Shown piece after piece: positions 1 to 62,694 of a DNA stretch of 64,000 bases. This DNA comes from Marsupella aquatica (taxonomy: Eukaryota; Plantae; Marchantiophyta). The notes beneath the pieces are model-generated. The model saw only the letters and a list, made by a program, of their open reading frames with translations, ran no database searches and was not told the origin of the DNA. Within the stretch, counting starts at the first letter, position 1, and each line of letters begins with the position of its first letter. The stretch spans positions 8,743,875-8,807,874 of the forward strand of contig OZ316891.1 of assembly GCA_973895155.1 (NCBI GenBank), written 5' to 3'. The translations under genes and the position numbers were made by a program.

Positions 1-64
1 GAACACGGTCAATTCTATCAACTACGAGGTACATGATCGTCGGCCTGTCGAATTCAAGGAGGAG

Positions 65-1940
65 TTGAATCAACCGGACTTTACCAAGGCATCTTTAGCC
101 CCAGGAGTTCTCGAATCATTGAAGGAACAATTCTTCAAGGATAAAATTGTTCTATGTTTTGAAGGGGTGGTTAATATCCGACAAGCGGAACTGTGGATAG
201 ATTTGTACAATCAACAGCATATACATCAGTTGGAAATCTTTGAACCTTTAGCAAATGCGCTTTTTGTCATTTCGGTTATCGATACTGATCCTGTTAAAAC
301 AGTACAAGCATTGATTCTTTCGTCTCCCCTCATTCTGGCTGAGTTCCAGCATAGTCGTGCTCTACAGGCTAATCTTTCGGGTAAACCTCTTCACATTGAA
401 GACCGCCAGGTGTCGATTAATGAGTTCTCTCCGAACTTCAACCCAGAGAAGCCAGAGAATTTCAAATATCTAGTTACCATTAAAGTCGCTAAGGCCAATC
501 ACCTTTTATACATGATTATTGATTCGGTATTTCAGAAATTTGGGAAGATTACGCGGCGACATGTCAGTGAAGGAATTGATAAGCACAGTATCATTATCCT
601 TCTGGAGACTAAATATCGTCAGTGGACTTCATCCATCTTATTTCAACTTAGCGCCACAGAGGAGACTACCATACAATTTGAGGTCATTGATAAGCAATTA
701 CGGTGTCAACTCTGTTTCTCTCCCACACATTTGGCGGACCGGTGCTATCAAGGGGACGGAGGGGTGATCAGAGGAGGTCAACAACGATATCAAGGATCGG
801 TACAGGGGCCGCAACGAGACCTCTCCCAACGCAACGAAGTGATCCGAAGGCCGATACAGAAGTTCAGTTGGAGCAGTGCAGTCAACACGGGGAATGCGCA
901 GTATACACAGCAACTGAGAAACAATTGTCCGGAGATCCAAGAGTGGACTAAAGAGCGGCTGATAAGTCAGATCTGCGAAATTGTCCAGTGTCTTCAAGTA
1001 CATTTGCTCCAGAATTGGCTATCAATTTGGCTATCAAGCAGGCTCAGAGTTTAGCCCCCTTCATACTTGAATAAGAAGAAGGAACGTTTGGATAAGGAAA
1101 AAGAGAAGGATAATCAGCCCGAGGTTAGTCATTCAACATCCAAATGTTCATCACATATTCAGCGGAACACTAAAGTAGTGAGTAAGCAGGAGAAGGAGTT
1201 CAGAGACGCACAAGCCTTGGCACTTCGGGAGTGGCAACAAATACAGGAGGTGGAACTCTTGAAAAAAGAGAATCTATCAATTTTGGAAGAGAAAAATCAG
1301 CAGTCTTAAGGGGAAGGCTGTTCAAGAATTGATCACTCCTAGTAATCCTCAGAGCTTTCGCGGTGTTTGTGAATTACTCCCCATACAGGAGACTAACTCA
1401 CTCACAGAAACAGGAGATACTCCTCTGCATCCTAACCTCTTGTGCACTCCGAATCTGAGTGGAATTTTTCCGATTGATTTTGAAGGGATTCCAGCTTCTC
1501 AACTATTCTCTCATCTCCAAGAGTTACACAAGAATATTACTGAGAGGTTAATTACTCTGGCGGGACCAGATACAAAGTCCTTGGAAGTTCCTGTGAATTT
1601 GGTGGGACCATTGGGTACTTTCACATCGGTGAAACAATCGTTAGCAGGCAGCCCTGATTTGGTGGCAAAGCAGTCGCTAGTGGGAAGCCCTGATTTGGTG
1701 GTAAAGGGTTTGTCACTTAAAAGAGGGAGAAAAAGTGCGGTAGCATCTTCATCTCAGATCAAACCTTCTCCTAGGACTCGTCGTCATCTGTTTAAGCATT
1801 TGCCAATTGAAGGTGGAACTAATCAAGTGGGTAGTACATCTTGTCAGATTCCGAGCTCGGGATCTCCTTTTATCCCTGATTCTCAGGTCTTGGTTACTAC
1901 ATCTGATAAGATCACCAAAGAACAGTTACCATCTCAGTAA
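65..1940 (+). pseudogene. LINE ORF1 (gag-like), broken by stops and frameshifts
   Basis: ORF pieces 65-1054, 1067-1309 and 1329-1940. Zinc knuckle CQLCFSPTHLADRC. Lies directly upstream of ORF2. Confidence 0.7.
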
Positions 1941-1965: not shown

Positions 1966-4659
1966 ATGAAATTACATATTGTCTCACACAATTTACAGGG
2001 GCTTTGCGGGATGGACCGTATTGCTAAAGTTTGTCAATTCATTCGAGAGGCATCTCCCAGATTGGATGTCTTTTGTGTACAAGAACATCATCTACGGGCA
2101 GGAAGGCTTCCTATGCTCTCATTTCAGATTTGGAAGGAAGCGGAGATTTTTTTCTGTCCTGCGACAGATGGCATTATGGCATCTAGAGATCCTGCTGCTG
2201 ATTCCGGCAAAGGTGGTTTGTTCATGGCAGTGGGGCCCAGGATGTTACTTCACTTGTTTCAGTCGGGTTCCTTCCGGGGGGAAGGGGAATGTGGTGTTCA
2301 TTTCATCATCCTAAGCTTGGTAAATTTGGTATTATTAATATCTACGCTCCAACTGGTCAAGAAGGAGCATGTGAGCATACTAGGCTTTGGAAGGAAATTT
2401 TTGAAACCATTCCTAATGATCAGGCTTGGATATTGGTGGGCGACTTCAACATGGTTGAAGATCTTATGGACCAAGCTGGCGGAAGACCTCATGTGGTTTC
2501 CGGAAGTGAAAACGGGCTTGGGAACATCTTAAGCGCAAGATGAAATGGGCTGATACTTTCAAAAAAATTCCTGGTCAACTTCGATTCTGGTGGTGTAACA
2601 GAAGGACAGTGGAAAGTGGGGTAAATACAGAACGTATTTACAGGCGTCTTGACAGGTGTTATGCTCCCACGGATTCCTCTCTTGTTCACTTTTTGATTGT
2701 CTCCCGTATTATCCCAGCTCAGTATATGTCTGATCATCACCCTATTTCTGTGATTGGTACTTCGGGGGACCGGTCCCCCTTTCCTTCAAGGTTCAAAATG
2801 AACATCGCACATTTCAAAGATGTTAAGTACCGACAGCAAATGGAGCAACTGTTGGTGAGTGAAGTGACCAGATTGGAACGGAAAAAAGTCCCTCTAGATA
2901 AGTGTCTTGAAATCTGCCTCAAAAAGGCAACTAACTTGGATAGATCCTGGGGGAAAAAACAAGCTATGATTTGTATGCTCAAATTAAATGTGCTAAGAGA
3001 TGTCTTGGCTAAAGCTCAGGTTGATTTGGAACTGGATCCTCAAAATGAGATGTATCAGTTGAGATTCCTTGATTGTCAAAAACAATTGAAGCTGTTGGAG
3101 GAAGGAAAACTTAAATGGATTCAAGAGGCAATGCGAATGAATTGGATTCAGTATGGTGATGTCTGTACGAAGTTACAGTTCAATTCTTTCAAATCCCGAG
3201 CTGCTGCAATGGAAGTCAAGGGTCTCTATGATGCTGACAGGACAGTTCAGAAAGAGTGGGATGCGATGTCTAAGATCGCTACTGATTTCTACACCAATTT
3301 ACTTTCATCTAAGCACATTCCATCTGAAGAAGAGCTGGAAAAGGTGCTAGATAAAGTTAAGATCCAGATCACCCCTGAAGATCAATTGATGCTTGAAGCA
3401 AAACTGACGTTGGCAGAGATTCACATGGCAACGAAGGTGTTGGGTCAACATAAAGCCCCTGGTCATGATGGGGTCCCGGCAGAATTCTTTCTAACCTTTT
3501 GGGATCAGATTGGCCCATCTCTTCTATTGGCGCTCAAGCATGGATTAGAACGGGGATGTTTCAGTACATCCTCCTTTCTGAAAGGGATTATTGTTTTACT
3601 CATGAAGAAATGGGATGAGTTTAAAATTGAAAATAAGCGACCAATATCACTCCTCACTGTGAGCTACAAAGTGGGAACGAAGACGTTTCAATTACGCCTG
3701 GTGAAAATCCTGATCAAGGTCATTTCAACTCAGCAGTATGCGTACTTACCAAGGAGGTCTATTCATCACACACTGCTGTTGACAAATGAAATGATTGATC
3801 AGGCTATGATATCACCGGACCCTTTTGTCTTTTTAAAACTTGACGTCATCAAAGCCTTTGATAGCGTTGAATGGATCTTCATTGAACGGATCATGGAAAA
3901 AATGGGCTTCGGCAGTTTCTTTGTCAAGTTTTTTAAATCCATTATGACCAATGCATCATCCACTATCTTGATCAATGGCAGAACCACGAAGTGTTTTAAG
4001 ATCACTCGTTCTGTTCGGCAGGGGTGCCCGATTTCACCTCTTTTTTCTTGATTGCTATTCAAGGATTGGATTGTGTCTTATCAGATAAACTTTCATCTGG
4101 AGAGTTAGAACGAGTTCGATTCCAGCGAGAAGGGCTTCATCTTGCCCAAAAATTCTACGCTGATAATACTATGATCATTTTGAAAGGTGATAGGCAGAAC
4201 ATTAATATCTGCAAGGAGTTATTTGGATTTTTTGCCACTGCGTCAGGTTTGGCCTGTAACTGGGATACGGCATCTGCGATTCTTTTGAGCAACGGATCTA
4301 TTCCAGCGGACCTGAGTGACTTACAATGGGTTTGGGAGAGCCCGGGTCATTATTCAAAGTTGCTTGGTTTCTTTTTTGGAGCGGATGGGATTGATAAAGC
4401 TCACACATTGATTTACATCAAGGAGGTGCTTGCAAAAAAGCTTGTTCAAATCAATAAGAGACCTTACTCTTTTATGGCCAGGGTTCTGGCGATCAATCAC
4501 ATCATGATGGGCTCTCTTTGGTATACTCTAACCCTTTGGTGTGGAACGGATGAAGAACTGCACACCATTAAAATGGCTATGATTGATTTTCTATGGGCTA
4601 GACAAGCTACTTCGGCTCGTCACCAGATCAGTTTCAATATCCTTGCTCTCCCAAAGAAG
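1966..4659 (+). pseudogene. LINE ORF2 5' part: APE endonuclease plus reverse transcriptase, frameshifted
   Basis: ATG at 1966 (MKLHIVSHNLQG). APE motifs: VFCVQE, INIYAP, LVGDFN, RLDR, SDHHPI. RT motifs: KAPGHDG, RPISLL, KLDVIKAFDSV, RQGCPISP, YADN (degenerate YADD). Confidence 0.92.
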
Positions 4660-4991
4660 TGTCACACCATTTAGAGTGGTAGTAAAGTATATCGTACTAT
4701 CTAGGATATAGAGGTTTTATATGTGTGCTATATGAGCACTTTGTGTTTAGTTTGAGTTGGTGTGAGGGATAGTTATCCCCTTGTGTTGGCTCAAAGGCCT
4801 CATCTTTCAATGTTGAGCCTTTGAGCATGAGCTTGGTGGCTATAGTGTGGCTGACCAGGTTGTGTGCATGTAACGTGGATTCCTTGAAGCACAAGGTGCG
4901 TTGGGCTTGACATATATGTGTGATCGAGTCGGACGGGATCGATGTTGGATTAGCACTGATCGTTGTTCGATTTCATCCAGAAAAGATTACA
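4660..4991 (+). repeat. Repeat block A1 (TG...CA, 332 bp)
   Basis: Near-identical to 13923-14252, with about 3 transitions counted by eye. Confidence 0.93.
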
Positions 4992-5000
4992 TTGAAAGAT
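4989..5000 (+). promoter_or_regulatory. Putative self-priming primer-binding site
   Basis: ACATTGAAAGAT is the exact reverse complement of ATCTTTCAATGT at 4802-4813 inside block A. No TGG-type tRNA PBS follows the CA end at 4991. Confidence 0.6.
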
Positions 5001-5569
5001 CACTGCAAGTTGATTCAAAGCTGTTCGAAGCTTGCTGTATTGCAGAGTTGATCCATGGTAGCTTGGATTGTTGAGATCTTGCTGGTTGACTTGTGGTAGC
5101 TCAAGTCAGATCAGCCGTTGGTAGATTGGAGATTGTGAGCTATTGATTGCTCTGAGAGTACAGCGTGGTGCTGTTTGAAGCTCTCTGATAGTTTGTTCAT
5201 TGAAGTTCTCTCTGGAGTTGATTACCGGATTGACATTTGGAGCTTCTCGAAGCTATGGCAATGAGGGATTGATCGAAGATCAGAAGGCGCCTCAAGTGGT
5301 AGTTGCTACATTGTGTTTTTGGAGTTCTAGTCCTTATCGATTGCGTTGCAGCATCGCAAAGACTATTGCGGATTTGAGATTCGTTGATGGATAGTACACT
5401 TTTACGAAGAAAGTGACAATCAAATGTTGGTGAATTGCGTTGTCGGCGTCACGATGGAGTCCGCGTTGCGACGAGGTGCGGCAGCGACCTAGGGCACAAG
5501 GAAAACGACAATATTGTTGAACAGTGTTTTGGTCCGAGAATTGCGGCGTGTTTTGTGGCGCGCCTTGTT

Positions 5570-5942
5570 TTGGACTAGGATCATCCGAGTCCAATTGTGG
5601 GTTGTCTCTTGAGACTTCATTTTGACTCAAAGTTGGATTTGGATTGGGATCATCCGAGTCCAATTGTGGGTTGTCTCTTGAGACCGCATTTTGACTCGAA
5701 GTTGGATTTGGACTAGGATCATCCCAATCCAACTGTACATTGACAACGTTGGAGACTTGATTTTGGGCGAAGGTGAAATTGGATTGGGATCATCTCAATC
5801 CAACTGTATGTTGGCGTGTCCAGAGACCTCATCTGGACCTTGAAGTGGATTTGGATTAGGATCAACCCAATCCAACTGTATCTTGGTGACTTCACCTGTG
5901 TAGAGGATGTGAAGGACTTGGACTGGGATCATCCCACTCCAA
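5570..5942. repeat. Array of six 25-bp palindromes (consensus TTGGATTGGGATCATCCCAATCCAA) at 67-72 bp period
   Basis: Copies start at 5570, 5639, 5708, 5779, 5851 and 5918. Arms are 12 bp around a 1-nt centre. Confidence 0.9.
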
Positions 5943-6194
5943 CTTGTGGACCGGGCGTCCGAATGACTATTGAATGGATTTGAATTGGAGGTTCACCCCG
6001 ACATAGCGAAGTGTGGCGGGTGTGAAGGGCTCCCTTAGGCTCATCTCGGCGTTTCAAGGCGACTCGTGACGAGGGGCGTGAGGACGGAACAGGAGCCAGA
6101 CCGGAGCGGGCCGCAAGGTAGCTTGTTGGTACGTGAGGAGTAGTTGACAATTGGTTGGTTTGGAGTGCCTAAGTTGGTGCATAACTCCAAGGGG

Positions 6195-6265
6195 GGAGGT
6201 CACCCATCCCAAAGCTATTCCTCTTGCGCGTGCTTAACCATGGAGTTCTTATGGCATGTAGTGTA
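6195..6265 (-). ncRNA. 5S rRNA-derived segment (Pol III internal promoter A-box/C-box region) within the retrotransposon leader
   Basis: The plus strand reads GGAGGTCACCCATCC...GCTTAACcatGGAGTTCTtATGG. This matches the reverse complement of plant 5S rRNA (C-box GGATGGGTGACCTCC and A-box GTTAAGC region) at about the right spacing. The 5S ends are not conserved. Confidence 0.72.
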
Positions 6266-6568
6266 CACACAAGTTTTCACAACTTGTTGTCTAAGTTAAA
6301 GGGCCAGGGGGCTTTATACACTTATTAGTTTGTCTAGAGACCTGTTTTGGGCCAAATTAGATGCTACTTGGAGGTTTTTGATGCTTCTGAATCCATCTAG
6401 ATGCATAGATTGGATTAATTTTTCATGGATTCTTAGCTACAACCTTGGGGCATTGTGAAGCCTATTATGAAGGTGATGGTGATGATTTAGGGCAGATTTG
6501 TCATCACGGATTCTTCGGGTGCTACGGAACTGTCCGAGGGACAAAGGACCGGTTTCACTCGAAGTGGG

Positions 6569-8284
6569 GTGCCGTTTCGGCCAACGACATTGATAGCAGT
6601 TCCAAGTGCAGCTTCAGATAGTGATTCTGACAAGGACTCTGTGACCAGTTCTCCTTGTCATCGGGTGATTGCACCTTTGTTGTGGGATATGGAAGAGATG
6701 TACGGGGCTACAAAGGGTCCACGACGATACTCTGGTGCAGTTGGCACGATTGATCTGGATGACTTCATCCAGGAGTTTGATACGTGGTGCGACATGCAGT
6801 CATTGCGTAATGCCACGTTGTTTACCCCTTTCATGGCATGGAAGGGATTATTTCAGCATTTGGAGGGGCCACCCATGGATGATTACCATGAGTTTTGGAA
6901 GGCTCATTTGGTTGAGATTGAGGCATGGAGGCAGCATTGGTCACCTAATTATGTGTCCATCACCTATGGCACTAGAGCGGCTGCCCAACCCATTGCTATA
7001 GCTGTTGCTTCTTCTAGTAGCACTAGCCAGAGTGGCACACCATCTACCAGTACCACTCCAACAACATCCACCGCTACTCCTACCAGTGCGATTGTGACAG
7101 GGGTTGGAGTCACGCCAACATTTAACCCTGTGGTGGAGTTCTTTGAAGTATTAAAGCAAAACTATCAGGGTGTGAGGACTGATAAGTTGAAGGGTCTCCA
7201 GGAGTTTCAGTGCAAGACTGAAGAGAGTCTACGTGAGGCATACACTCGTATGCGCAGATTGATCATTGTCACCAAGGGAGTGACAGAGGCTCAAGCAGTC
7301 CAATTTTGGTATGCAATTCTGGATAGAGAATTGCGACGTAGAGTGAGAGATGTCACTCTGCTTAGGGATGCAGATCCCACATTGGCAGTTGTTTTTACAC
7401 TTTCTGAGCGAATTGAGCTCAATATGGTGAATGAGAAGGTGGTGACTTCCGGATTTGCCAAGGAAGCACCCAAGGTTGCATCTACATCCACACCACAGCC
7501 TGTTGCACGGAAGAGCCAGAGGGAGAAGCCTACTGCACGAGAGTCTACCAGTCAGAGACCTGTGCCTTCCTATGTTGGACAACAATCAGGATGTTGGACC
7601 TGTGGTGGGGATCATGCGCAGCGGTATTGCCCTGATCCTAGAGGGTCAGGAGGGGCCTCAGCAACTGATCAGCGGTAGTGTGATCATTGTGGAGCTCCTG
7701 GACACACCAAGGATAGGTGTTTCTCACTCCATCCCGAGTTACGGAGAGGAGGACAACGCACACATGATCAGGGAAGAGGAGGTAGAGGTGGTGGTCATGG
7801 CCGAGGTATGCCACATGTAGCGAGGCAGGGAGGTGATGTTGCTCCTGCTGTGACCACAGATCCTAAGGATGCTAAGATTGCTCAATTGGAGCAACAACTA
7901 GCTGCTATGGCTAGTTCTCAGGTGAGACCTGCTTCTGGTGATGGGGCTTCTACATCCTATGGGGCTTCCACATCTTATGGGGCTGATGGAGATCTTGCCA
8001 CCATGGGATTCATGTGTGGCACTGCACACATTGATGCATCAACAGTTTTGACGTGTGGGGCAGCAAAAGCTCTTGAGCCCCGAGGAGCAGTAGTGGACCT
8101 AGATCCATAGAGGGGGGATGCACGTCGTCAGACAAAGCTTCCTCAGTCTTTTACATTGTCAGAGACAGTTCAGACTGCCTCTATGAACCCGATTCGGACA
8201 AACCCTAGCGTGGGTAAGTTGGCAGAATCAGGTAGTGATGCAACAGGGATGACAGGTACCCTACTGGGGCGGCTACTACCATAG
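6569..8284 (+). pseudogene. Gag with two CCHC zinc knuckles, in-frame TAG stops at 7676 and 8108
   Basis: Capsid-like region (ESLREAYTRMRRL). Knuckles CWTCGGDHAQRYC (7592) and CDHCGAPGHTKDRC (7679) in one frame. First ATG at 6689. Confidence 0.85.
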
Positions 8285-9345
8285 TGCGCACCCCATTATT
8301 TTCAGCTACAGACATGCTGAACTTGGGAGTTGGTCCTGCAGAAGTGTTCAGATTGGCAGCTACACTCTGTGAGGACACTCCAGTTGTTGCTTCCCATGCA
8401 AAAGCAGCTTGCAGTGTTGAAGCTGTGAAGACCATGCCACCTACGGCTACTAGCGAGACCTGGCATGCAGCAACAGCGAGGTTGGTGGATTTACCAGCAC
8501 GCCCTGCATTTGAGAGGACTAGGTTTAAACCTAGTGTTGTGTCATTGGATAATCGGAGTGGTATCTTCCGATTAGTTGGGTCTACTGGAGCCATATACCA
8601 GCTAGAGAGAGTGTTACTGGATACTGGTGCTCAGCCCTTGATGTTGGGTAAGTCTGCGGTACGAGGATTGGCATTGCGTCCAGATGATCTGGAGGAGTGT
8701 CCCTTTCCTATTCAGACTTCATTGGGGGGACCTACACCCACACAGCACATCACCAGACGACCACTTGAATTGAGGATTCAGGAGGGTCATGCCAAGGATA
8801 GCTCCCACATACGAGCGCGAGCTATTTTGACTAAGGCCAAGTCCTATGACGTGTTGGTGGGATGTACAGTGTTGTACCCCATGGGATTTATTCTTGATTT
8901 TTTGGATGAATCAGTGTCATACAGACCTGATTGGCAGTCAGGAGATGCTCGATTGAGCAGGTTGCCAGTGCAATTTAGTGGACCTGTGGGAGGCCCTAAA
9001 CCCACACTATTGTCTTTGGCAGCCTTCAGTGGTGTGATCACTGGTCCTGATGATTTGATGAAGGGTAATGCACATGCAGCAGATGTTCCATCAGTGGAGG
9101 AGTCACATGAGGAGCAGATGGTGCGAAGGAGCAACTTGGATTGGGATGATCCCAATCCAACTAGTGTTGTGCCACCAGTATGGGGTACTACACAAGCCTT
9201 GCCGCAGAGGGCAACACAATTGGTACATGATGCATGGCGTCATGCTTTTACACCACAGTCAAGAGCAAAGAAATCTCCTACAGGTGGACCAGTGACTCTT
9301 TCACCATTGGATACCACTCCTATTGCATGGCAGTATCCACCAGAG

Positions 9346-10290
9346 GGTATTTGTTTGCTTGATCTATTTGGTGGAATTAGCACTGGATTGGCTACTATTC
9401 TTCAGGCAGGAATTCCTGTGCGTCGATACTTGTATGTGGAGACAGATGAGACAACACGGAGAGTCTCATTGCGCCATGTGGCTATGTTGGTAGACCGTTA
9501 TCCACAGTTGTTGCCAGTGGATGTTGTTCGTGGCTATTAGCATGCATTGCCGGCTGATATTTCATTGCTGGGGGCGGATCATTTGGATCGCGTTGGCCCC
9601 ATTGATTTGGTGATTGCTGGTTGGTCATGTCAAGGCCAATCAAGAGCTGGAGTTGGACATGGACTTCATGATCCACGCTCTGCATTATTTTGGGAGATGT
9701 TACGGGTATTGCGTCATCTCCAGTTACACCAAACACATTCCCCTGCCTATATTTTGGAGAATATGCCACTATTGGGTGATGAGCGTCATCGACTTGTTGC
9801 TAGTGTTCATCAGGTCAGATCTTGGATTGGACCTGCTGTATTATTGGATGCTGCACGTATGGGTTCTCGTGCACATCGTCCACGCTTGTGGTGGACTAAT
9901 TTGTTACCTTGTGAAGTGTTGAAGCGAGCATTTGATAGCATTCCTCGCTCAGCATCCTTGGTGGTGGATGATATTTTGGATCCAGGGCGTTGTGCACAAC
10001 ATGTGACCCAGTCTGACATATCTCCATTGGCAGTGGTCAATGTAGTTGGTCGTCCGCATTGTGCATTACCCACTTTTGTGAGCCATTCTACTTCATATGC
10101 ATTTAGAGCAGGTGGGCCTGGACTTGTATGGGATACAACGCTACAGCAATTAGTGGAGCCTACTACTGATGAAAGAGAGCGTGCTATGGGATTTTTGACA
10201 GGCACTACTGCAGTTGCCTCGGTGTCAGAGAGTTCACGCCGCCAAGTCCTTGGTCAAGCCATGGATTTGAATTGCTTGACTTGGATTATC
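9346..10290 (+). other. C5 DNA cytosine methyltransferase domain (DNMT3-like) within Pol
   Basis: Motif I LDLFGGISTG; IV DLVIAGWSCQG (PC changed to SC); VI YILENM; VIII AHRPRLWWTN; IX ERERAMGF; X RRQVLGQAMD. All in canonical order. Confidence 0.9.
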
Positions 10291-13200
10291 AGCTTGGGAG
10301 TAGTTGAACAGTTGCGGATGCGCTCTGCTGGTGTTACTGATCGTCCATTAGTGAGCTTGCGGTCCACTGAGACAATGATGACCACAGCTGGGGGCGAGCA
10401 TGCAGTCCATGGACCTATGGCAGGATTGGCCCAGGCTGGACAGATTGTTGAGCAGGAAGGGACTGCTCAATCTATTGCTAAATAGCAATCATTGGCTATC
10501 TCTTCTACCCTACAAAAAGATATTAGGGATCTGGTGAAGAGTTGGGAGCCACAGATTGGTCCTAAGTTGACAGGGGAGGAGAGACGTCGCATGCATCGAT
10601 TCTTGAAGAGTTACTGGAATTGTTTTGCATTCAGCATGAAGGATTTGGGGACATTGAAGGGCCCTGGTATTCAGATTGAATTGGCTAGTGATGCGCCAAT
10701 CTTTCGTAGACCATATCGTTATAGTGACATGGAAAGAGCTCTGATTCAGAGTAGAACTCAGGATTTGTTGGAGGCTGGTTTGGTGGAGATCTCATACGGG
10801 GAGTATGCATCTGCCACAGTGATGCCAGCCAAGAAGGATGTGCATGGTAATTACACGGATAGGCGTATGTGTGGTGATTACCGACCTATTAATCGTCAGA
10901 CAAAATTTGATCGATATGCCATGCCCACACCTGAGGAGATCTTTGATGCAATGGGGCATGCAAAGGTTTTTAGTTCATTGGATCTGAGGGCAGGGTACCA
11001 TCAGCTTCCAATCAGACATTCTGACAGGTCCAAGACAGCATTCTGGGGAATTGATTCTTATGGCAAGGATCGTTTGTATCAGTGGTTGTTCTTACCATTT
11101 GGGTTGAAGAATGCACCTGCTGAGTTCCAGAGAGTCATGGATCGAATCCTTGCAGGTTTGGATTTTGTCAGATGTTATATTGATGATATTTTGGTTTATT
11201 CTTCTACTGTGGAAGAACATCAACGACACTTGCAGATTGTGTTTGAGAGATTGAGGGAACATGGATTGAAGCTCCATCCCGGCAAGTGTAAGTTCTTCCA
11301 AGAACAGATTGAGTATTTGGGCCACACTATATACCCAGGGGGATTGGGTGTACAATAGACTAAAGTGGAGGCCATTACACAGATTCCTCGTCCTACTGAT
11401 GTGAGTAGAGTTCGTGCATTCTTGGGATTGGCGAGCTACTATAGGAGGTATGTTAAAGGATTTAGCCAGCTTGCTAAACCTTTGACCATACTCACTAAGT
11501 TGGATCAGGAATGGATTTGGGGTGATGATCAGGAGCATGTCTTTCAGGAGTTGAAAGAAAGATTGGCATCATCCCCTATTTTGAGAAGACCCATTTCAGG
11601 GAGACCATTTCAGCTACACACTGATTGGAGTGGAGTAGGACTTGGAGCAGTGCTGACTCAGAAAGATGATGAAGGACATGACTTTGTTGTGGCATATGCC
11701 AGTAGATCAAACAATTTAGCAGAGGCTAAGTATAGCTCTTATGAGGGAGAGTGTTTGGCAGCAGTGTGGGCTGTGGCACACTTCCGCTGTTACTTGTTTG
11801 GTAATCCTTTCACTTTGATCACTGATCATCAGCCTCTCAAGTGGTTAATGGAGTTTGACAAGCTTACAGGGAAGCTTGCACGATGGGCATTGTTGTTATA
11901 GGAGTATGATTTCCAGGTGGTGCATAGGCCTGGAAAGGTGAATTTGGATGCAGATGGGTTGAGCCGCAATCCATGTACCAGTCAGGAGGATGAGACTGGA
12001 GCTAGATGGCATGATGAGTCAGATAAGGAGATGGTGTCAGGATGGCATGCATCTGCCTTCCTTTGTTGGGTTCCAGCATGCAGTGGTTCTGTGGACTCTA
12101 CTTCATTGGATGAAGCAGATGATGAGTCTTCAGATGTGGATGTTGGTGAGGTAACTTTTGGACAGCAAGATATTCACAATGATGTGAAAGTGTTGGAATA
12201 TCTGCGCAGTGGTTCTATTGTTGGCAGTATTGATGCCAAGGAACGTGACAGGGTTCTACAGAGAGCCAAGAGGTTTCGATGGGAAGGAAGCCATCTTTTG
12301 AGAGTACTACGTGATGGTAAGGTATTGGTGGTACCAAAACCATCACAACGAGTACATTTGGTGCGACATGCGCACGAGGAGTTAGGGCACTTTGGTGTCA
12401 AGCGCACTTATAGCTTGCTGCAGACACAGTATTGGTGGCGTGGTATGCACACTCATGTCCAACAACTGATAGCTAAGTGTGTGGTATGTGATCGAGTGAG
12501 GGCATCATTTAATGCTCCCACTCCCCAGTTGCATCCATTGCCAATCATGGGTTTGGGGTACAGATGGAGTTTGGACTTTGCTGGTCCATTGCCTCTCACC
12601 CAACGATATAACCGTTATGTTTTGGTTATGGTGGAGCACTTCTCCAAGTGGATTGAACTAGTGGCATTGCCAGATAAAGCTAGTGGAGGAGTGGCTACCA
12701 CATTTCTGGATCGAGTACTTAGTCACTTTGGAGCACCAGCTGAGGTGTTGACTGATCAGGGCACGGAATTCCGTGGAGATTTTGAGGGTTTGTGTGAGCA
12801 AGCTCTGATTGACCATCGTACTACTTCTCGCGATCATCCTGAGGCAGATGGATTGGCAGAGAGAGTTGTACAAACTGTGAAGAGAGGATTGCGCAAGTAT
12901 GGCTTATAGGTTGGTCATTTGGGAGACTGGGATCTCCAACTACCTTGGTTAGCTATGGGCTACCGTTTCAGTCGACAAGCATCACTTGCATCCTTCTCAC
13001 CCTATTTCTTGCTCTATGGTAGAGAGCCAGATTTGCCAGCGGCTATTTGTCGTGATGTTGCAACTGTTGTGGATTTGGATGATCCAGATATTTGGATAAA
13101 GGTTTGTTCAGAGAGGGCACGAGTTTTTGAGAGAGTCATGCCCATGGCCTTTGACAACCTTGCTATTGCCCAACATCGTGATACTTTGCGATATGCTACT

Positions 13201-13470
13201 ATTTGTGGAGGAGGTTATCGCACGAAGATTAGGAGATTTCATCTTGGCGATTATGTTTATTTGCAGCAGATAGCACCAACAACGCTTGATGTGACCGCAG
13301 GGCGGACAATCTTGCGTGTGCGTGAAGTGTTGCCTTCTGGAGTCCTTATGTTGGAAGGGCGTGATGGTATGGTTTGGAAGGATCACATGCGTAATTGTGC
13401 GCCATGTCACCTTCCAAACATTGATGGCATTGTGGATCCAAGCTTGGCACATGTTCGTGCTAGCTTGAAG

Positions 13471-13608
13471 TGTATGTTGTGTGGGTCTGCTCAGGAAGCA
13501 GCTACTATGTTGATTTGTGATAGGTGTTCTAGAGGATGGCACATGTCGTGTTTGACACCACCCTTGCACATGATTCCTAGTGGATCATGGTTTTGTCCTC
13601 AATGTCGG
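13471..13608 (+). other. PHD finger at the integrase C-terminus
   Basis: CMLC...MLICDRCSRGWHMSCLTPPL..IPSGSWFCPQC, a C4HC3 pattern with the conserved Trp. Confidence 0.92.
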
Positions 13609-13775
13609 TGATGCCGACTAGTTATCATTTGTGTTCTTGTGGAAGATATAGATTGCAGGTAGGTGATCGATGGGGCTCACTTGCACCCGGCCTCCTGATC
13701 TTCGCACCTAAAAAGGTGTATATTAACCTTGTAGAACTCATGGCTAGCTAGAGTTAGGGGACCTCACTCCCAGCT

Positions 13776-13786
13776 AGGGGGGCGAT
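13776..13786 (+). promoter_or_regulatory. Polypurine tract
   Basis: AGGGGGGCGAT lies immediately before TGTGGG, the start of block B1. Confidence 0.7.
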
Positions 13787-13920
13787 TGTGGGTTTTAGGC
13801 ATGTGGACATTGGTTCCATTTGTACTCCATTCTCTTATGTTCGTGTTAGTGGATTGTGACTATGTTTGAATATGTGTGACAAGCGATGTATGTTGTGTAG
13901 CGATGTGTATGCGCACGACA
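13787..13920 (+). repeat. Repeat block B1 (TG...CA, 134 bp)
   Basis: Matches 14254-14387 with one transition seen. Confidence 0.93.
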
Positions 13921-13922
13921 GC

Positions 13923-14252
13923 TGTCACACCATTTAGAGTGGTAGTAAAGTATATCGTACTATCTAGGATATAGAGGTTTTGTATGTGTGCTATATGAGC
14001 ACTTTGTGTTTAGTTTGAGTTGGTGTGAGGGATAGTTATCCCCTTGTGTTGGCTCAAAGGCCTCATCTTTCAATGTTGAGCCTTTGAGCATGAGCTTGGT
14101 GGCTATGGTGTGGCTGACCAGGTTGTGTGCATGTAACGTGGATTCCTTGAAGCACAAGGTGCGTTGGGCTTGACATATATGTGTGATTGAGTCGGACGGG
14201 ATCGATGTTGGATTAGCACTGATCGTTGTTCGATTTCATCCAGAAAAGATTA
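13923..14252 (+). repeat. Repeat block A2 (lacks the terminal CA)
   Basis: Copy of 4660-4989. Confidence 0.93.
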
Positions 14253-14253
14253 T

Positions 14254-14387
14254 TGTGGGTTTTGGGCATGTGGACATTGGTTCCATTTGTACTCCATTCT
14301 CTTATGTTCGTGTTAGTGGATTGTGACTATGTTTGAATATGTGTGACAAGCGATGTATGTTGTGTAGCGATGTGTATGCGCACGACA
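14254..14387 (+). repeat. Repeat block B2, 3' terminus of the element
   Basis: Copy of B1 ending GCACGACA, followed by resumed LINE sequence. Confidence 0.93.
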
Positions 14388-14391
14388 AAAG

Positions 14392-16330
14392 GAAGGTGGA
14401 GTTGGTCTTATAATATCTTTTGAAAATCAAGTGCACGCCTTGGCTGCTAGATTCATCATGTTCGCGTTGTCGGAAGGTTCTCATCCTTTACAGCTGCTAT
14501 TAAGATCTTGAATTCTCACTCTTTCAACTCATCGGTGGGGAGTAGAGGATTATTCTTGGATTTTTCACCCTTGTCGGACTCTGCCATCTTCGGGGAATTT
14601 GGAAAATCATTTGTAGATCCTGGAATAAGCTGAAAATACTTCTGGAACCTACTATACCTGATAATATTTACTCCAGCCTGGATATCTCACTTTGGTCGCC
14701 ATCGATTAATCATCTGGAGTTTTGTAAGGCAGGGTGTAAAACTAATCCGCAACGACATCTACGTTCGATTGGTCTTAAGTGTTGGGGAGATTTGATTCCT
14801 ATCACTAGGATCCCCATTACATGGGAGTCAATGATTGATATGGGTGCATTACCACGGGAGAAAGATGCTTTCCTAGCCATTCTGGCCAATGCTCAGATAC
14901 CACTTTGTCACATGGATCACTCGATGGTGGAGAAATCTGTGTTGATTTCCTCTATTCTTGTCAGGGAAGGTAATACTGTTTGGGAATACCTTATTCCTAA
15001 TCATCAGATGCAGGATTGCTGGAGGTTAGAAGATCTTTGACAGGATCCAACGCACACGTACATTATTCAGGATGGAATGTTATGTAAGATTGATAATCTC
15101 GGGGGGGTCACTATATGGAGGGCCATACATCGCGTGCGACGTTTTAGGGTTTGACCCCCCTAACTTATAAGTGAAAATTATTTTTTTGCAAAGCCCTTTC
15201 TTTCTTTAAATTTTGTCATTTTTTATTAAAAAACCCCTAAAAACTTTAAAGAAAGTATTTTTTGCAATTAAATAGGCCTATGTGTTCTTTAAAGTCGACC
15301 AGTCAATAAAACATGCCCTATGTGTTCTTCCACCAAACTTTGGAAGTCTTCCGCCACACCCATTTAAATGGGCCTATACTTCGTCGCACGTGATGTGCCA
15401 CTTCCATGGAAGTGACCCCCCCTGAGTTGATAATGCTCAGATTTCTGGGGATGTTTTACACAACATGGTGTTGGGCTTATCTAAGAGCTGGCGTACACAT
15501 AAGATCGGTGTGGGATTGAAAGGCGCTTACAAGTCTGAGGTTGGAATTTCCAATCGATACCGGTGGAAAGATGGTAAATATTTTTTTTATGCAAATACAG
15601 CTAGTATTCGAAAGATGTTACTTAAGCATTCATCGGGAAGTCTGATTGGCTATAACAAGTGGAGGATGGAAATTCGTGGGGTACCGGATGTTAGTAAGGT
15701 CTGGAGTGGAATCTGGAAAGCATATCGGGAGGAAAAGATCAATCACTTCCTTTGGCAAATTGTGCATCGTCTTTTAGCTACGAAGCATTATATTGGTTGA
15801 CGGTCTGTTAGATACTTAGAGGATGGTACCATGATTCCATTTACTCGTGATGATGCCGCATGGTGGTGTTCTCGCTGTGATCTACGTTCTCATGAGGACA
15901 TCCTCCACTGCCTCTGGTCATGTCTGTTTTCTCAGAAGCTTTGGGTTTGGATCTTTTCTATTATGCAGCATGCTGCTGGGCCGAATGTTGCCATCTTCCA
16001 TTTCGAGGTTGTTCATGTCTTTCTTAGTGCAGCACTTCCATGTAACTGTGGTATTCCTCTTAAGATATGGCACATCATTAGAGGAATAGCCATATGGCAG
16101 ATTTGGAAAGCTCGTTGCACCTTGGAGAAAGAAGCAGTTATTTTCTCTCTCTTGCATCCAGTGCAAGATCTGGTCTGAGATCCGTTTATGTTTACGGATT
16201 ATTTGGCAGAATGGTTGGAGAAACCATATGGAGAAAGGTGGCTGTTGGCAGGAGTTGGTTGGCAAGATGAAAAGAGACTTGGGTCGTGCAATGGTGGCAT
16301 TTATGAGTTGGTGGACCAATGCATTATTGT
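14392..16330 (+). pseudogene. LINE ORF2 3' part including the zf-RVT region, degenerate
   Basis: EGGVGL resumes at 14392. Later motifs: KINHFLWQIVHRLL, CSRC...EDILHCLWSC, IWQIWKARC. Confidence 0.82.
15098..15426. mobile_element. MITE with about 45-bp imperfect TIRs and an 8-bp TSD (hAT-like)
   Basis: Ends CTCGGGGGGGTCACT...AGTGACCCCCCCTGAG. TTGATAAT is duplicated at 15090-15097 and 15427-15434. AT-rich interior. Confidence 0.88.
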
Positions 16331-35539: not shown

Positions 35540-37550
35540 ATACAAAGGGACCAAACAGAGTACAAATGAACAAACAAAAGAGGGCCCATGTGGACAAAAC
35601 CAATCGAAAAAGAAGTGAGCAAAAGGGAACCACTAAACACCAAGAAAGAGGAACTAAAAGTAAGAAATGAACAATAGGGAACCCCTAAAAACCAAGAAAG
35701 AGAGAGAGACTAAAACTAACCCAAGCGGACCGAGGTCCTCATCATTCCTACCGATTGTGGCAAAAAGCTAATGGTCCACATCAAGAGTCAAAACTAGATC
35801 GGCAAGTGGGATTGGAACATCCTCAAGGGGAGCTAGCCGCTGCGGAGGCACACTAGCACCCACTGTAAGAGATCGACGATAGATGGCCCGAGCTTGAGCA
35901 CGCTGTAAGGTGACTGAAATGCGTTGGCGAAAGTGCGTGGTCAAAATAGAAAGCGGGGGTCCGGTGGGACCCATTTGGCCATGAACATCCCGGGCAGCTT
36001 GCCGAAGAAGCCCATCAAACTGAGGATGAAGACGCCCAAATAGCTCCACAGCAAGGGGGAGGAAGCTGTCGGATGAAGCTCGTGCAGCATATTTGGCCTC
36101 CTTCGTTGTTGCCGCACGTGACGCTGCTGCCCCTGCCGTAGTTGCCGCTGTCCCAATGATGTCTTGGCGCAATGGGTTTGCCACCACAACATCTGCCAAA
36201 GTACGTTGACCCTCACGGACCATGGTAAGATCCACCCGTAACCGCTGTGATGGAGGACCAGGTAACTCGAGTACCACCTCCCGCCGCACGCATACCAAAG
36301 AGCCAGAGAGAACCTGAGCAGTCGCATCTCGCACAACGTCGTGAACAATAATGGTTTCACCTCCCAAACTGCACCGAAGAAGATGGACGCCTGTGGCATC
36401 ACAAGGCTTCCCACAAGTGCAAGAAGGAGGTAAACCTGCAAGAAGTGGGTGGGGCAGCCCCAGACGAAGACGCATGGCTGTGGAGAACTCCGTTGAAGAC
36501 ATCCGCAAATGAGGAATGACTGGATTGGCCTGAAGCCATCCACCTGCGCCCTTCCCTCCGGAAGAAAGAATCCGAGCTCGGTCCGTGTCAGGTGCCTCGG
36601 AGAGGATGCTGGAAAGGGTGAAAGTGTGCATACGCCCAGCGAGGTCTGCCTGAAGACGAACGGGATCCAAGGATAAAAACTCCTGGAAAGAAGGTAACGC
36701 GGCGCGAACGGGATCTGGTAATGAGGACCGCGCTGCGCGCAAATGAACCTGAAACGGGAGGGAACCCTCCTCTACCTCCATGAGAGATGAAAGTAAAAAA
36801 GGGCGATCCTCAATAAGAAAACGATCGGCCAACAACGAGAAGGCGGCCGCCCATGCACCCAAAAAGGCCAAAGGTGCAAGGCTCTCAATGGAAGTAAGCC
36901 CAAAACCACCCTGCAAAATAGGAAGACTGAGTTGTCGATGAAGCCAAGGAGATGAGAGCAACGTACCCGGACCTAAAAGAGAGGCCAGGGTCTGACGAAT
37001 GGAGACATCAAATGCTCGAAGGTGGAGACAAAGATCCTCGGTAGGGGGATGCATCCTAGCCAGATAAGACGCACGAGGGTGGATGCACCTCAACAACATC
37101 CCTCAACAACATCCCAAATGCTGCCTGAGAATCTGCTAACTTAGGGAGCATAGGAGTATGGGCTAAGGCAGCCTGTATAGAGTCAGCGATGAAAGATGAG
37201 CAAAAGGAGGCGGTACCGACTGGGGAGCCAAGGACCCGAAGACCATCGGCTGGACGTAAGAACCCTAGGGGAAGCACAAGATCAGAGGGTAACCCAGCTG
37301 GACTCCATGCACGACTCTTCACAGGCTGAACGCGTAAACCGAGGCCCATCAAATGGGTGGAAAGAGTGGCGAGGGCAGAAGTAACCGCGGCAGGAGGACC
37401 AATGATGTGGGTGTCATCTGAAAGGGAGGGGAAGATACACTGGGGGTGGGCCATGGCAGCTTCCCGTAAAACTGTAAAATGGGCAATGGCAAAAAGAGGC
37501 CCACCCAAAGGGTCACCCTGACGTGTACCTTCTGCAGAGGAAAGAGGTTT
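35540..37550 (-). mobile_element. 5'-truncated non-LTR retrotransposon with RT and restriction-like endonuclease (CRE-like)
   Basis: RT: GTRQGDPLGGPLF, SLSDDTHIIG, LRVLGSPVG. Then LSLPILQGGFGL, CTC...HLLRC, HDVVRD, RVDL...ADV, LAVELFG. A 13-bp duplication at 37088-37113 shifts the frame. Boundaries are approximate. Confidence 0.85.
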
Positions 37551-60300: not shown

Positions 60301-61453
60301 CTCTGCAACACTTCTCATGAGGTTCAAGAACGTCTAGACTACCATTTGTTTGGCTATCAGTCTAACCTGAATCACCACTTAATAATTACCCAACCATTCA
60401 GAAAGAGTCCACGGACACTCCCCTTTCCAACTCATCCAAAAACAGACACATTCATTTCCAGCCCGGAAGATAAACTACGGGGGTAGGGCAGAAGGAGACG
60501 CGTCCTACCTGACCCATTTCCAGGTAAACAGCCGCTCTGTTAGTAAGGTACGAGATATCCTCGTCATCCAACTCGAGAGCCTTAGTATAGTGCTCGATTG
60601 CTTCCTGGAACTGTTTCTTCTTGTAAGTCTGGTTGCCCAACTCCTTCTCCTTGAGTGCCTCAGCCTTCTTGTCCTTCTTTCCTTTCTCTTCACTTGAAAT
60701 TTCCATTGCCTCCGGTTCTGGTTCGACTGGAACTGACTGCGGTTCCCTACTTGATGTCTCTGCTGGCTTTGGTGGGGAAGACCGACCTGTCGTGGCAGGA
60801 AAATCATCGGCAGCAGCACTATCATCATCCCATTTTCCGCTCTCCATATCTTCCGCCGACGGAGTTTGAATGTTGACACCGAGAAGAATGCCCAAAACTT
60901 GCATCATCCTCGGATCATTGATATACCGATTGAGGTTGTTGGGATTCCTTTGCACGTCCTGAAGCATTTTGACGAAATCTGGTTGTGCTAAATAAGCTCT
61001 AGTTCTAGGGTCTGTCTGTATCTTTGCCCACACCTCAGGGCCCTGAAATATATTGGCAAATGGAGATGCCCCGGCCCCAATAGGCGGGGCTTTGGCTTTG
61101 GCACTGGCCGCCTGGGCATCCGATAGTCCTGATTTGAAGGCCTCATTGCTGGGATCAAGCTTCAATCCATCCTTGTAGGCCGTGACAGCATCATCAAACT
61201 TGCTCAGGCCCACGTAGGCAGCCCCGAGTCTACTGTAACCTTTACTCCAGTCCGACTTTAGCTCTACCGTCTTCTTGGCATCAGAGAGGGCCTCAGAATA
61301 CTTCTGGACAGACGCATACGACGCAGATCGATTCGAGTAGAGGACATGGTTTTCAGGTGCGAGAGATATTGCCGTCGAGAAGTGTTCTATGGCTTCCTCA
61401 TACCTGCCTGCTGAAAACGCTGAGTTTCCTTTCGCTTTCGCATCATCTGCCAT
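57309..61453 (-). CDS. HOP: Hsp70/Hsp90 organizing protein (HOP/STI1), 8 exons, about 594 aa
   Basis: Exons 61453-60509, 59996-59708, 59296-59211, 59070-58900, 58563-58511, 58192-58126, 57803-57744 and 57422-57309. All GT-AG and phase-consistent. TPR1-DP1-TPR2A-TPR2B-DP2 layout ending [14 protein letters not shown]. Confidence 0.96.
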
Positions 61454-62694
61454 CGCTGGGCTCTCCTATACAACTCTTCAATGCTCCCTGCCAACGGCAA
61501 TTCAAATCAACCCATGTCCCTCAAATTACTTCGCGATAAGCATACCAGACATAGATAGAAACGCTTTTGAACGGGAATCATCCCGACAAGGTGCATAACT
61601 TTGACAGAATCGTCCAGCACAGAAAACATGACAAATCCCCATCTCTCGAGCTTTCTCAAAAAAAATCAGGAGACTACTAATTCAGACCACCATCGGTGAT
61701 GCAAACAGTACCAATTGTACCTATTCTTATAAGCAACAACCGCTCTGACCTTCAACCCAACCCCAACCCAACTCGAAAGCAATCTTCAAGATCAAAAAAG
61801 ATTTACCAAGCAGATCATCACATCAAACGCTGGCAGACGGACGCTAACTGTATAAGAAGAGAGCTCTGGGCAGAAACAAATGCTACAATTATTATTTTAT
61901 TCTATGGAGAACATAAAAATGCACGAGAGGTGAAGGCCCGATCCGCTGGCCCAGGAGCAAGACCTTAATTAAATCAGGGGATGCAGTAGATTGCTGGATT
62001 CAACATTGAATTCAGGACCCAGAGACACTACATACCAGTTTTCTTTTGAAAAATAGGTGAAAAACCTCTACTTGGAAAGACACAAAGATGGCAAAAACCC
62101 TGCCAAACAATGACCTAATTAATGACGGGGCTTTTGCCGTTAGCTTTTTGCGCTTTTGGGGCTCATGGGTCTCCCCTTCGCACTATTGGGCTTTTTGGCT
62201 CGAGGGTTTTTCCTGTGTTTTCCCCATTTATTGGGTTTTTGGCGTCTTGGATCATGTAACCTGATTAGAGCACCCCTATTGGTCTTGGATCATGTAACCT
62301 GGTTAGAGCACCCCTATTGGTCTGGTAAACCTACCAGCCGTTATGCCTTTGGCATGAGGGGCGAAAAACCATTCCCACCACACCGACTATAAATAAAAGG
62401 GGTCGCCTGGGCCCGCCTTGCTGTTATCCTTGGACAGCCTCCTACGCTCCAAAAGTGGGCGGAAAAAGGCCCATCACCTGCCTGCCATTGCTGTGCAATC
62501 GCCAAGATCCATTCGCGGATGTTTGATCTGTCGGCTCAGAATCACTTGGGATGGTCCCAGGTCCCATCGATGTCCAATTTGTGAGGATCTTGTGCTCACA
62601 CAGGAACTAGAGTGTTGATTTTCCCTCGCTTCTGGAGTGTGCATACTTGCTTGCTTCCCCACGCTCTCGAGCTCTCGTTCGTGCATTCTGGCAT

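Follow-up and report, generated by a model that had tools for sequence, protein, structure and literature searches.

Predicted Tf1-like self-priming in a Gypsy-type element with split repeats and a DNA methylase from Marsupella aquatica

The stretch of 64,000 nucleotides analysed here (the window) harbours a decayed Gypsy element at 4660-14387, nested in an older LINE, whose reverse transcription is probably primed by the first 11 nucleotides of its own RNA, in a manner similar to Tf1. The same reading, which we regard as probable in all its parts together, includes a hairpin that masks the primer sequence in the downstream repeat copy A2, and cDNA ends that are defined by the element's primer-binding site (PBS) together with its polypurine tract (PPT) and become joined. 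As a prediction from sequence, self-priming without a tRNA is well supported, since the complementarity between PBS and repeat is conserved with changed sequence in three reverse transcriptase (RT) groups, and this conservation backs the proposal of tRNA-independent self-priming made in the initial annotation. More tentative, and in our estimate slightly short of an even chance, is a wider picture of a self-primed, integrase-bearing lineage in seed-free plants and algae, in which an end-joined intermediate is opened at a palindrome and a hairpin over the start site acts as a lock that leaves only the 5' primer copy functional.

According to the proposed mechanism, the RNA likely starts at A4802 and its first 11 bases would fold onto the PBS at 4990-5000, as in Tf1. 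A cut between G4812 and U4813, for which the RNase H of the element is the candidate by analogy with Tf1, would generate the minus-strand primer, with a predicted stem containing the conserved motif GCTTGAC lying beside the cut. In the A2 copy and in plus-strand DNA the hairpin would mask the second primer site.

The element begins with TGTC and ends with GACA, and its repeats are split (A-B-A-B), the order being A1, coding region, PPT, B1, GC, A2 and B2 (Table 1). The pol frame encodes, from upstream to downstream, a protease-like part, a C5 DNA methylase (PF00145, located upstream of RT, RNase H and rve within one frame), RT, RNase H, an integrase (H2C2 and rve) and a PHD finger. No Pfam match was obtained for the protease-like part, which is presumably marked by a DTG motif; likewise, Pfam yielded no chromodomain in the pol frame but a PHD match instead, and no recombinase was matched in the seven element frames scanned. 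The best solved-structure relative of the RT is that of Ty3, while the closest named relatives of the methylase are found in liverworts and moss (Calypogeia, Marchantia and Sphagnum), with no protein named from Klebsormidium among the 50 matches listed. At the 4660 end, eight contigs with unlike flanks break off in the public run X3, and at the B end 14-22 such contigs per run do so in the public runs X1, X2 and X4. The LINE-like RT frame surrounding the element extends over 2510-4674 and 14392-15040, and its reading LALPKK resumes as EGGVGLI past the element if the four duplicated bases are counted once. The leader contains six tandem repeats of 67-72 nt (5535-5944) with a palindromic TTGGA..TCCAA core, a further copy of which is present inside pol (9132-9162). 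Elsewhere in the window, both on the minus strand, a frame of 444 aa at 35768-37102 presumably resembles the C-terminal part of a non-LTR retrotransposon with restriction-like endonuclease, and a TPR-rich exon at 60452-61465 is one that we take to resemble the Hop/Sti1 co-chaperone.

Table 1. Features of the split-repeat Gypsy element, in coordinates of the window
Feature	Position	Strand	Remarks
Target duplication GAAG, 4 bp (likely)	4656..4659	+	AAAG on the right side (14388-14391), with one mismatch; lies in older LINE frame
Repeat A1	4660..4989	+	330 nt; left element end, starts TGTC; 99% identity to 13923-14252
Hairpin	4789..4826	+	5' arm 4789-4801, loop 4802-4813, 3' arm 4814-4826; 13-bp stem, one bulge
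Predicted self-primer (first 11 nt of RNA)	4802..4812	+	same position and G-T boundary in relatives
Strand pairing with about 4810-4820	4903..4913	+	stem adjoining predicted cut; fold of RNA from 4802
PBS	4990..5000	+	11 nt, abuts A1; no TGG; complement of 4802-4812
gag-like frame	6491..7678	+	no Pfam family; frame of relatives 40-50% identical
pol frame	8239..13611	+	interrupted by in-frame stops; domain search
PPT	13776..13785	+	last base adjoins B1; same tract before B in relatives
Repeat B1	13786..13920	+	135 nt; 3' terminus GACA
Palindrome GACA-GC-TGTC, B1-A2 joint	13917..13926	.	equals the element's right and left ends separated by 2 nt; kept in relatives
Repeat A2	13923..14252	+	second hairpin copy 14052-14089; second primer copy 14065-14075
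Repeat B2	14253..14387	+	right element end, GACA; A2-B2 joint = predicted PBS-defined end joined to PPT-defined end

Segments 4802-4813 and 4989-5000 are exact reverse complements of each other; in the 64-kb window this 12-mer and its complement occur solely at 4989 and at 4802/14065, i.e. in both copies of A. Directly 3' of A1, TGG is absent from 4990-5015. These bases, as well as the 13-bp stem with one bulge, had been correctly given in the initial annotation, which gave 4989-5000 as the complementary segment; the complementarity of that segment is exact, but the identity of A1 and A2 stops at 4989/14252, so that base 4989 is part of A1 and the PBS proper comprises the 11 nt 4990-5000. The 12th pair (A4989:T4813) falls past the predicted cut G4812/T4813. 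Shuffling A 20000 times yielded a complement of at least 11 nt beginning 0-5 nt after A1 in 15 cases, and the same criterion picks out 27 of 10590 positions in the window, the PBS site among them; with the complement forced to begin at the first base after A1, the count was 1 in 10000 shuffles. The methods section of PMC6317226 recognises self-priming by at least 10 bases that are complementary to the 5' repeat and begin 0-5 nt past it, and the PBS shows this arrangement. In runs X1 and X2, loose contig ends at 4973 / 14236 carry a PBS-like 14-mer unlike that of the window, and some run contigs possess indels in the primer region; possibly these belong to a sister subfamily with a different primer pair.

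Relatives of the element were compiled from metagenome contigs (80 loci) and genome contigs (one useful locus, L081). Most loci constitute family 2, in which the RT of L008 is 77% identical to that of the window, while the RTs of L038 and L081 share 63% identity with the window and 93% with each other; the latter two are collapsed contigs with a single A copy, in which the A ends were deduced. The four elements, from three RT groups, have four different PBS sequences, each beginning at its own A end and each matching its own A 160-177 nt upstream, over 11 nt in the window, 16 in L008, 15 in L038 and 12 in L081. Such a match was reached by one of 10000 shuffles for the window and by none of 10000 for each of the other three. 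In all four elements the match stops at a G/T boundary, after which follows the strand that pairs with GCTTGAC (4905-4911 in the window, and found in each of the four). L038 and L081 differ in two primer bases located in the hairpin loop and both differences are mirrored in the PBS (covariation); two changes in L051 are likewise mirrored between primer and PBS. Loss of complementarity among relatives had been named in the initial annotation as an argument against self-priming; what we find is complementarity that is kept, with two loop-PBS changes compensated.

The family-2 alignment is based on 16 distinct left copies, five of which were dropped (primer site deleted in four, interrupted in one). 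Among the remaining 11, Watson-Crick pairs are present in 8-11 copies at positions 1-9, in five (plus four wobbles) at position 10, in nine at position 11, in six at position 12, and in 8-10 at positions 13-16 and 18-20. As the pairing reaches ~20 nt in this family, an internal or long primer stays a rival there. Further searches returned no relative among 13 pattern matches in viral contigs and none among 25 in genome contigs (pattern P0043); genome contigs searched with the window RT gave four loci, of which one is a real relative and three are weak bacterial matches. Nine divergent loci were also scanned, upstream of the first domain, for inverted matches. L038 alone was informative; the region is missing in L041, and the remaining loci gave either nothing or matches in host DNA that could not be placed. 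L081 is a complete relative on a contig that is filed under a cyanobacterial genome assembly and has overlapping ends of 127 nt; this contig is likely a collapsed eukaryotic repeat that was misbinned.

Signals for the start of transcription are in register with the base at which the match begins. A TATA motif has its first base 29-31 nt ahead of the predicted +1 in nine of the 11 intact family-2 copies (with an 11-nt primer) and at -29 in L038 and L081 (with a 12-nt primer), and the predicted +1 is an A preceded by a pyrimidine in all four elements. TATA at that spacing and a pyrimidine-A initiator fit plant promoters. In the window copy, TATA is absent within 40 nt of 4802; just one contig per run, at 2-7% of depth, has an additional TATA after 4773. 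A transcript starting near 4802, one of the options raised in the initial annotation, is supported by the conservation of the complementarity with changed sequence in the three RT groups, the start itself being a prediction.

RNA modelled from 4802 forms the primer:PBS duplex with a per-pair probability of 0.60-0.97, the last three primer bases competing with the adjoining GCTTGAC stem. The same modelling for RNAs beginning at 4789, 4760 or 4660 gives the hairpin, without a nested duplex (a kiss is beyond what nested folding can model). For RNAs beginning at +1 of the relatives, the duplex is of high probability in L008 and L020, of 0.26-0.38 in L034, and drops at the last two of the 12 pairs in L038. 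For RNAs beginning 40 nt upstream, the long duplex outcompetes the hairpin in L008 and L034 but not in L020, and the long family-2 duplex does so in three of four co-folds.

The hairpin is the minimum-energy local fold (-20.1 kcal/mol for the hairpin alone), and the fold of 4770-5020 has a z of -3.7, with none of 200 shuffles equally stable. Its 5' arm is located upstream of 4802, the predicted start, and, as the hairpin needs these bases, it likely forms only in the 3' RNA copy (A2) and in plus-strand DNA. There it would hide the duplicate primer site or a cut-site stem, and we infer that it likely limits mis-priming. All four elements compared (window, L008, L038, L081) possess a hairpin over the predicted start, the 5' arm of which ends at the predicted +1 or at most 3 nt before it. 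The initial annotation had considered the hairpin loop as a display for the primer, with a kissing interaction between loop and PBS as one option. Neither can be upheld as a general design and loop display is rejected as such, because the whole primer lies inside the loop in the window family only, while most of the primer and the predicted cut are paired within the 3' arm in L008, L038 and L081. One relative (L071:3361-3878) terminates in A2 plus an inverted stretch of A (180..1) that starts from the exact primer boundary and ends with GACA. This inverted A is likely an integrated fold-back or a long-primer product, and shows the outcome when the duplicate primer site of A2 gets used.

Self-priming might alternatively proceed from an internal or 3' copy, i.e. 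an RNA started upstream would have its hairpin (in A1 or A2, possibly on a second RNA) invaded or kissed by the PBS, and a cut at G/T would leave a long primer. We consider this unlikely. It would account for the family-2 pairing to ~20 nt, which can outcompete the hairpin, and for the inverted A of L071, which is the product expected from a long primer, but the latter represents one of ten A2 right ends and is equally explained by a fold-back of plus-strand DNA with the 11-nt PBS copy. The window copy, having no TATA at -30, would also agree with an upstream start; yet its match is exactly 11 nt long, and that of L081 exactly 12 nt, beginning at an A 29 nt below TATA. Moreover, the primer is in the loop in just one of the four elements, and a kiss of 11-12 bp within a loop of 12 nt is sterically implausible unless the stem opens.

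Priming by the RNA's own 5' end, as favoured here, also has to be weighed against two readings in which the repeat does not prime at all. That the complementarity acts at the DNA level only, in strand transfer or circle closure, with the minus strand primed otherwise, appears highly improbable to us: the site is placed exactly as a PBS of the LTR type and defines the A end, the PPT defines the other end, and the start-site signals line up with the beginning of the match, although, as L071 shows, pairing of the two sites is possible in a replication intermediate and the layout is DIRS-like in the sense of the passages on repeats in PMC5890265. To a host tRNA or tRNA fragment as primer, with a merely coincidental match to the repeat, we assign next to no probability, given that each of four different PBS sequences matches its own repeat, and does so at the same place, and that no TGG follows A1. 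The bases flanking CTTTCAA are unpaired, so this motif is not an anticodon arm, and Rfam gave no match at E <= 1 in 4500-5600. What leaves some room for a tRNA is that the ARAGORN scan was limited to the window and 42 of the 80 loci, where it found no tRNA gene.

With self-priming as proposed, PBS and PPT would set both termini of the linear cDNA (B-A...B-A), and these termini, when joined, would correspond to the A2-B2 joint. GACA^GCTGTC is the likely site at which the integrase opens the molecule, giving the A1..B1-A2-B2 copy; cutting GACA-GC-TGTC in a staggered manner, after each CA, would produce two CA-3' ends with 2-nt overhangs. The match of the element ends to this palindrome, which marks the ends of every copy in which both could be seen, suggests integration from a joined circle, and retroviral integrases can cut palindromic circle junctions according to passages in PMC1905944 and PMC4372172. 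The 4-bp target duplication (TSD) is perfect in six of the eight relatives with both ends, the other two having one and two mismatches. Ten A2 right ends, including that of the window, comprise six precise joints, three imprecise ones and one inverted. The imprecise A2-B2 joints (L013:5690-5706, L015:12057-12073, L079:10838-10858 and L074:1909-1919, representing three insertions) carry a PBS-like remnant, PPT-like bases, and extra or missing bases. At the joint of the family-2 insertion L013/L015 we found an 11-nt PBS-like piece (10/11 matching) and four PPT-like bases, a remnant that fits an unremoved 11-nt primer.

Copies with the order A-B-A-PBS (B before A) were absent among the 16 left ends, though a symmetric circle predicts some. 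Eleven distinct insertions end directly after B1 (A..PPT-B, without repeats; L011/L016, L012, L020/L033, L025, L028/L069, L032, L035/L036, L044/L065, L052, L057 and L066), compared with nine that continue into A2, and the 4-bp TSD is perfect in three of the four B1-ending insertions for which both ends are present. Opening of one-repeat circles at the palindrome, B1 x B2 recombination or assembly collapse could account for the B1-ending insertions. In L070 (4959-5513), a rearranged copy, an inverted B and PPT are fused near the start of the PBS-leader.

Self-priming in a Gypsy-DNMT lineage with no chromodomain would imply either an older origin of this mode or a further invention. The primer and PPT sites would tell the cDNA end-join from the integration site, in a layout that has been noted for KnitGypsy-Dnmt3 and left unexplained in the passages describing it. 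Joined circles as the normal substrate of a DDE integrase become testable in Marchantia-type hosts, and software that looks for LTR elements on the expectation of two plain LTRs plus a tRNA site would likely misdraw elements of this kind.

Among known systems, the closest parallel in priming is with Tf1/Tf2 of Schizosaccharomyces pombe and the Tf1/sushi group, including Tj1 (passages in PMC4600332). According to the part of PMC7175516 on Tf1, the first 11 bases of its RNA pair with the PBS and are cleaved off by RNase H; the liverwort element likewise has no tRNA site, a PBS complementary to an 11-nt stretch of its own repeat, and a predicted cut after base 11, its priming being deduced from sequence. 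Unlike Tf1, which has two plain LTRs, it possesses split A-B-A-B repeats, a DNMT and PHD, and a hairpin across the predicted start. A seed-free-plant Gypsy group with predicted self-priming also exists in the Tcn1 chromoviruses of mosses and clubmosses, for which the relevant sections of Neumann 2019 (PMC6317226) give 83% predicted self-priming, 100% chromodomain and 100% 5-bp TSD; self-priming in plants is predicted in the sections of that survey concerned with it for the Tcn1 and TAR lineages only. Membership in Tcn1 or the Tf1-sushi chromoviruses is rejected in view of PHD instead of a chromodomain, 4-bp instead of 5-bp TSD, and split repeats instead of plain LTRs. Phygy, with a tRNA-Trp PBS and an NCGN target, is rejected as well, the element having no TGG and TSDs other than NCGN.

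With regard to its repeats, the element resembles the DIRS order (Ngaro, PAT, SymbioDIRS-Dnmt3) in its A1..B1-A2-B2 arrangement, where B1-A2 reproduces the joined ends; an assignment to DIRS (Ngaro/PAT) is rejected in view of its rve DDE integrase, 4-bp TSD, PBS and PPT, with no match to a tyrosine recombinase. The predicted opening of a palindromic CA..TG junction by integrase is similar to the internal cleavage of retroviral 2-LTR circles, as far as the passages cited above describe it; there, however, it is a side route acting on a true end-to-end joint, whereas in the present element the palindrome is a separate and fixed one within the repeat. In the open-access literature (Repbase and subscription journals lie outside this scope) we found no description of priming in a Gypsy-DNMT or split-repeat Gypsy element, and the passages of a 2026 preprint that deal with the Gypsy-DNMT lineage contain no account of it. 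The most similar element in overall construction is KnitGypsy-Dnmt3 of Klebsormidium nitens, described in passages of de Mendoza 2018 (PMC5890265), which say nothing of PBS, priming, PPT, TSD or a junction palindrome, as a Gypsy element with DNMT and DIRS-like A-coding-B-A-B repeats. Both share a DNMT inside the Gypsy Pol and the A-coding-B-A-B repeats, and the liverwort element fits the Gypsy-DNMT3 type by its domains and repeats.
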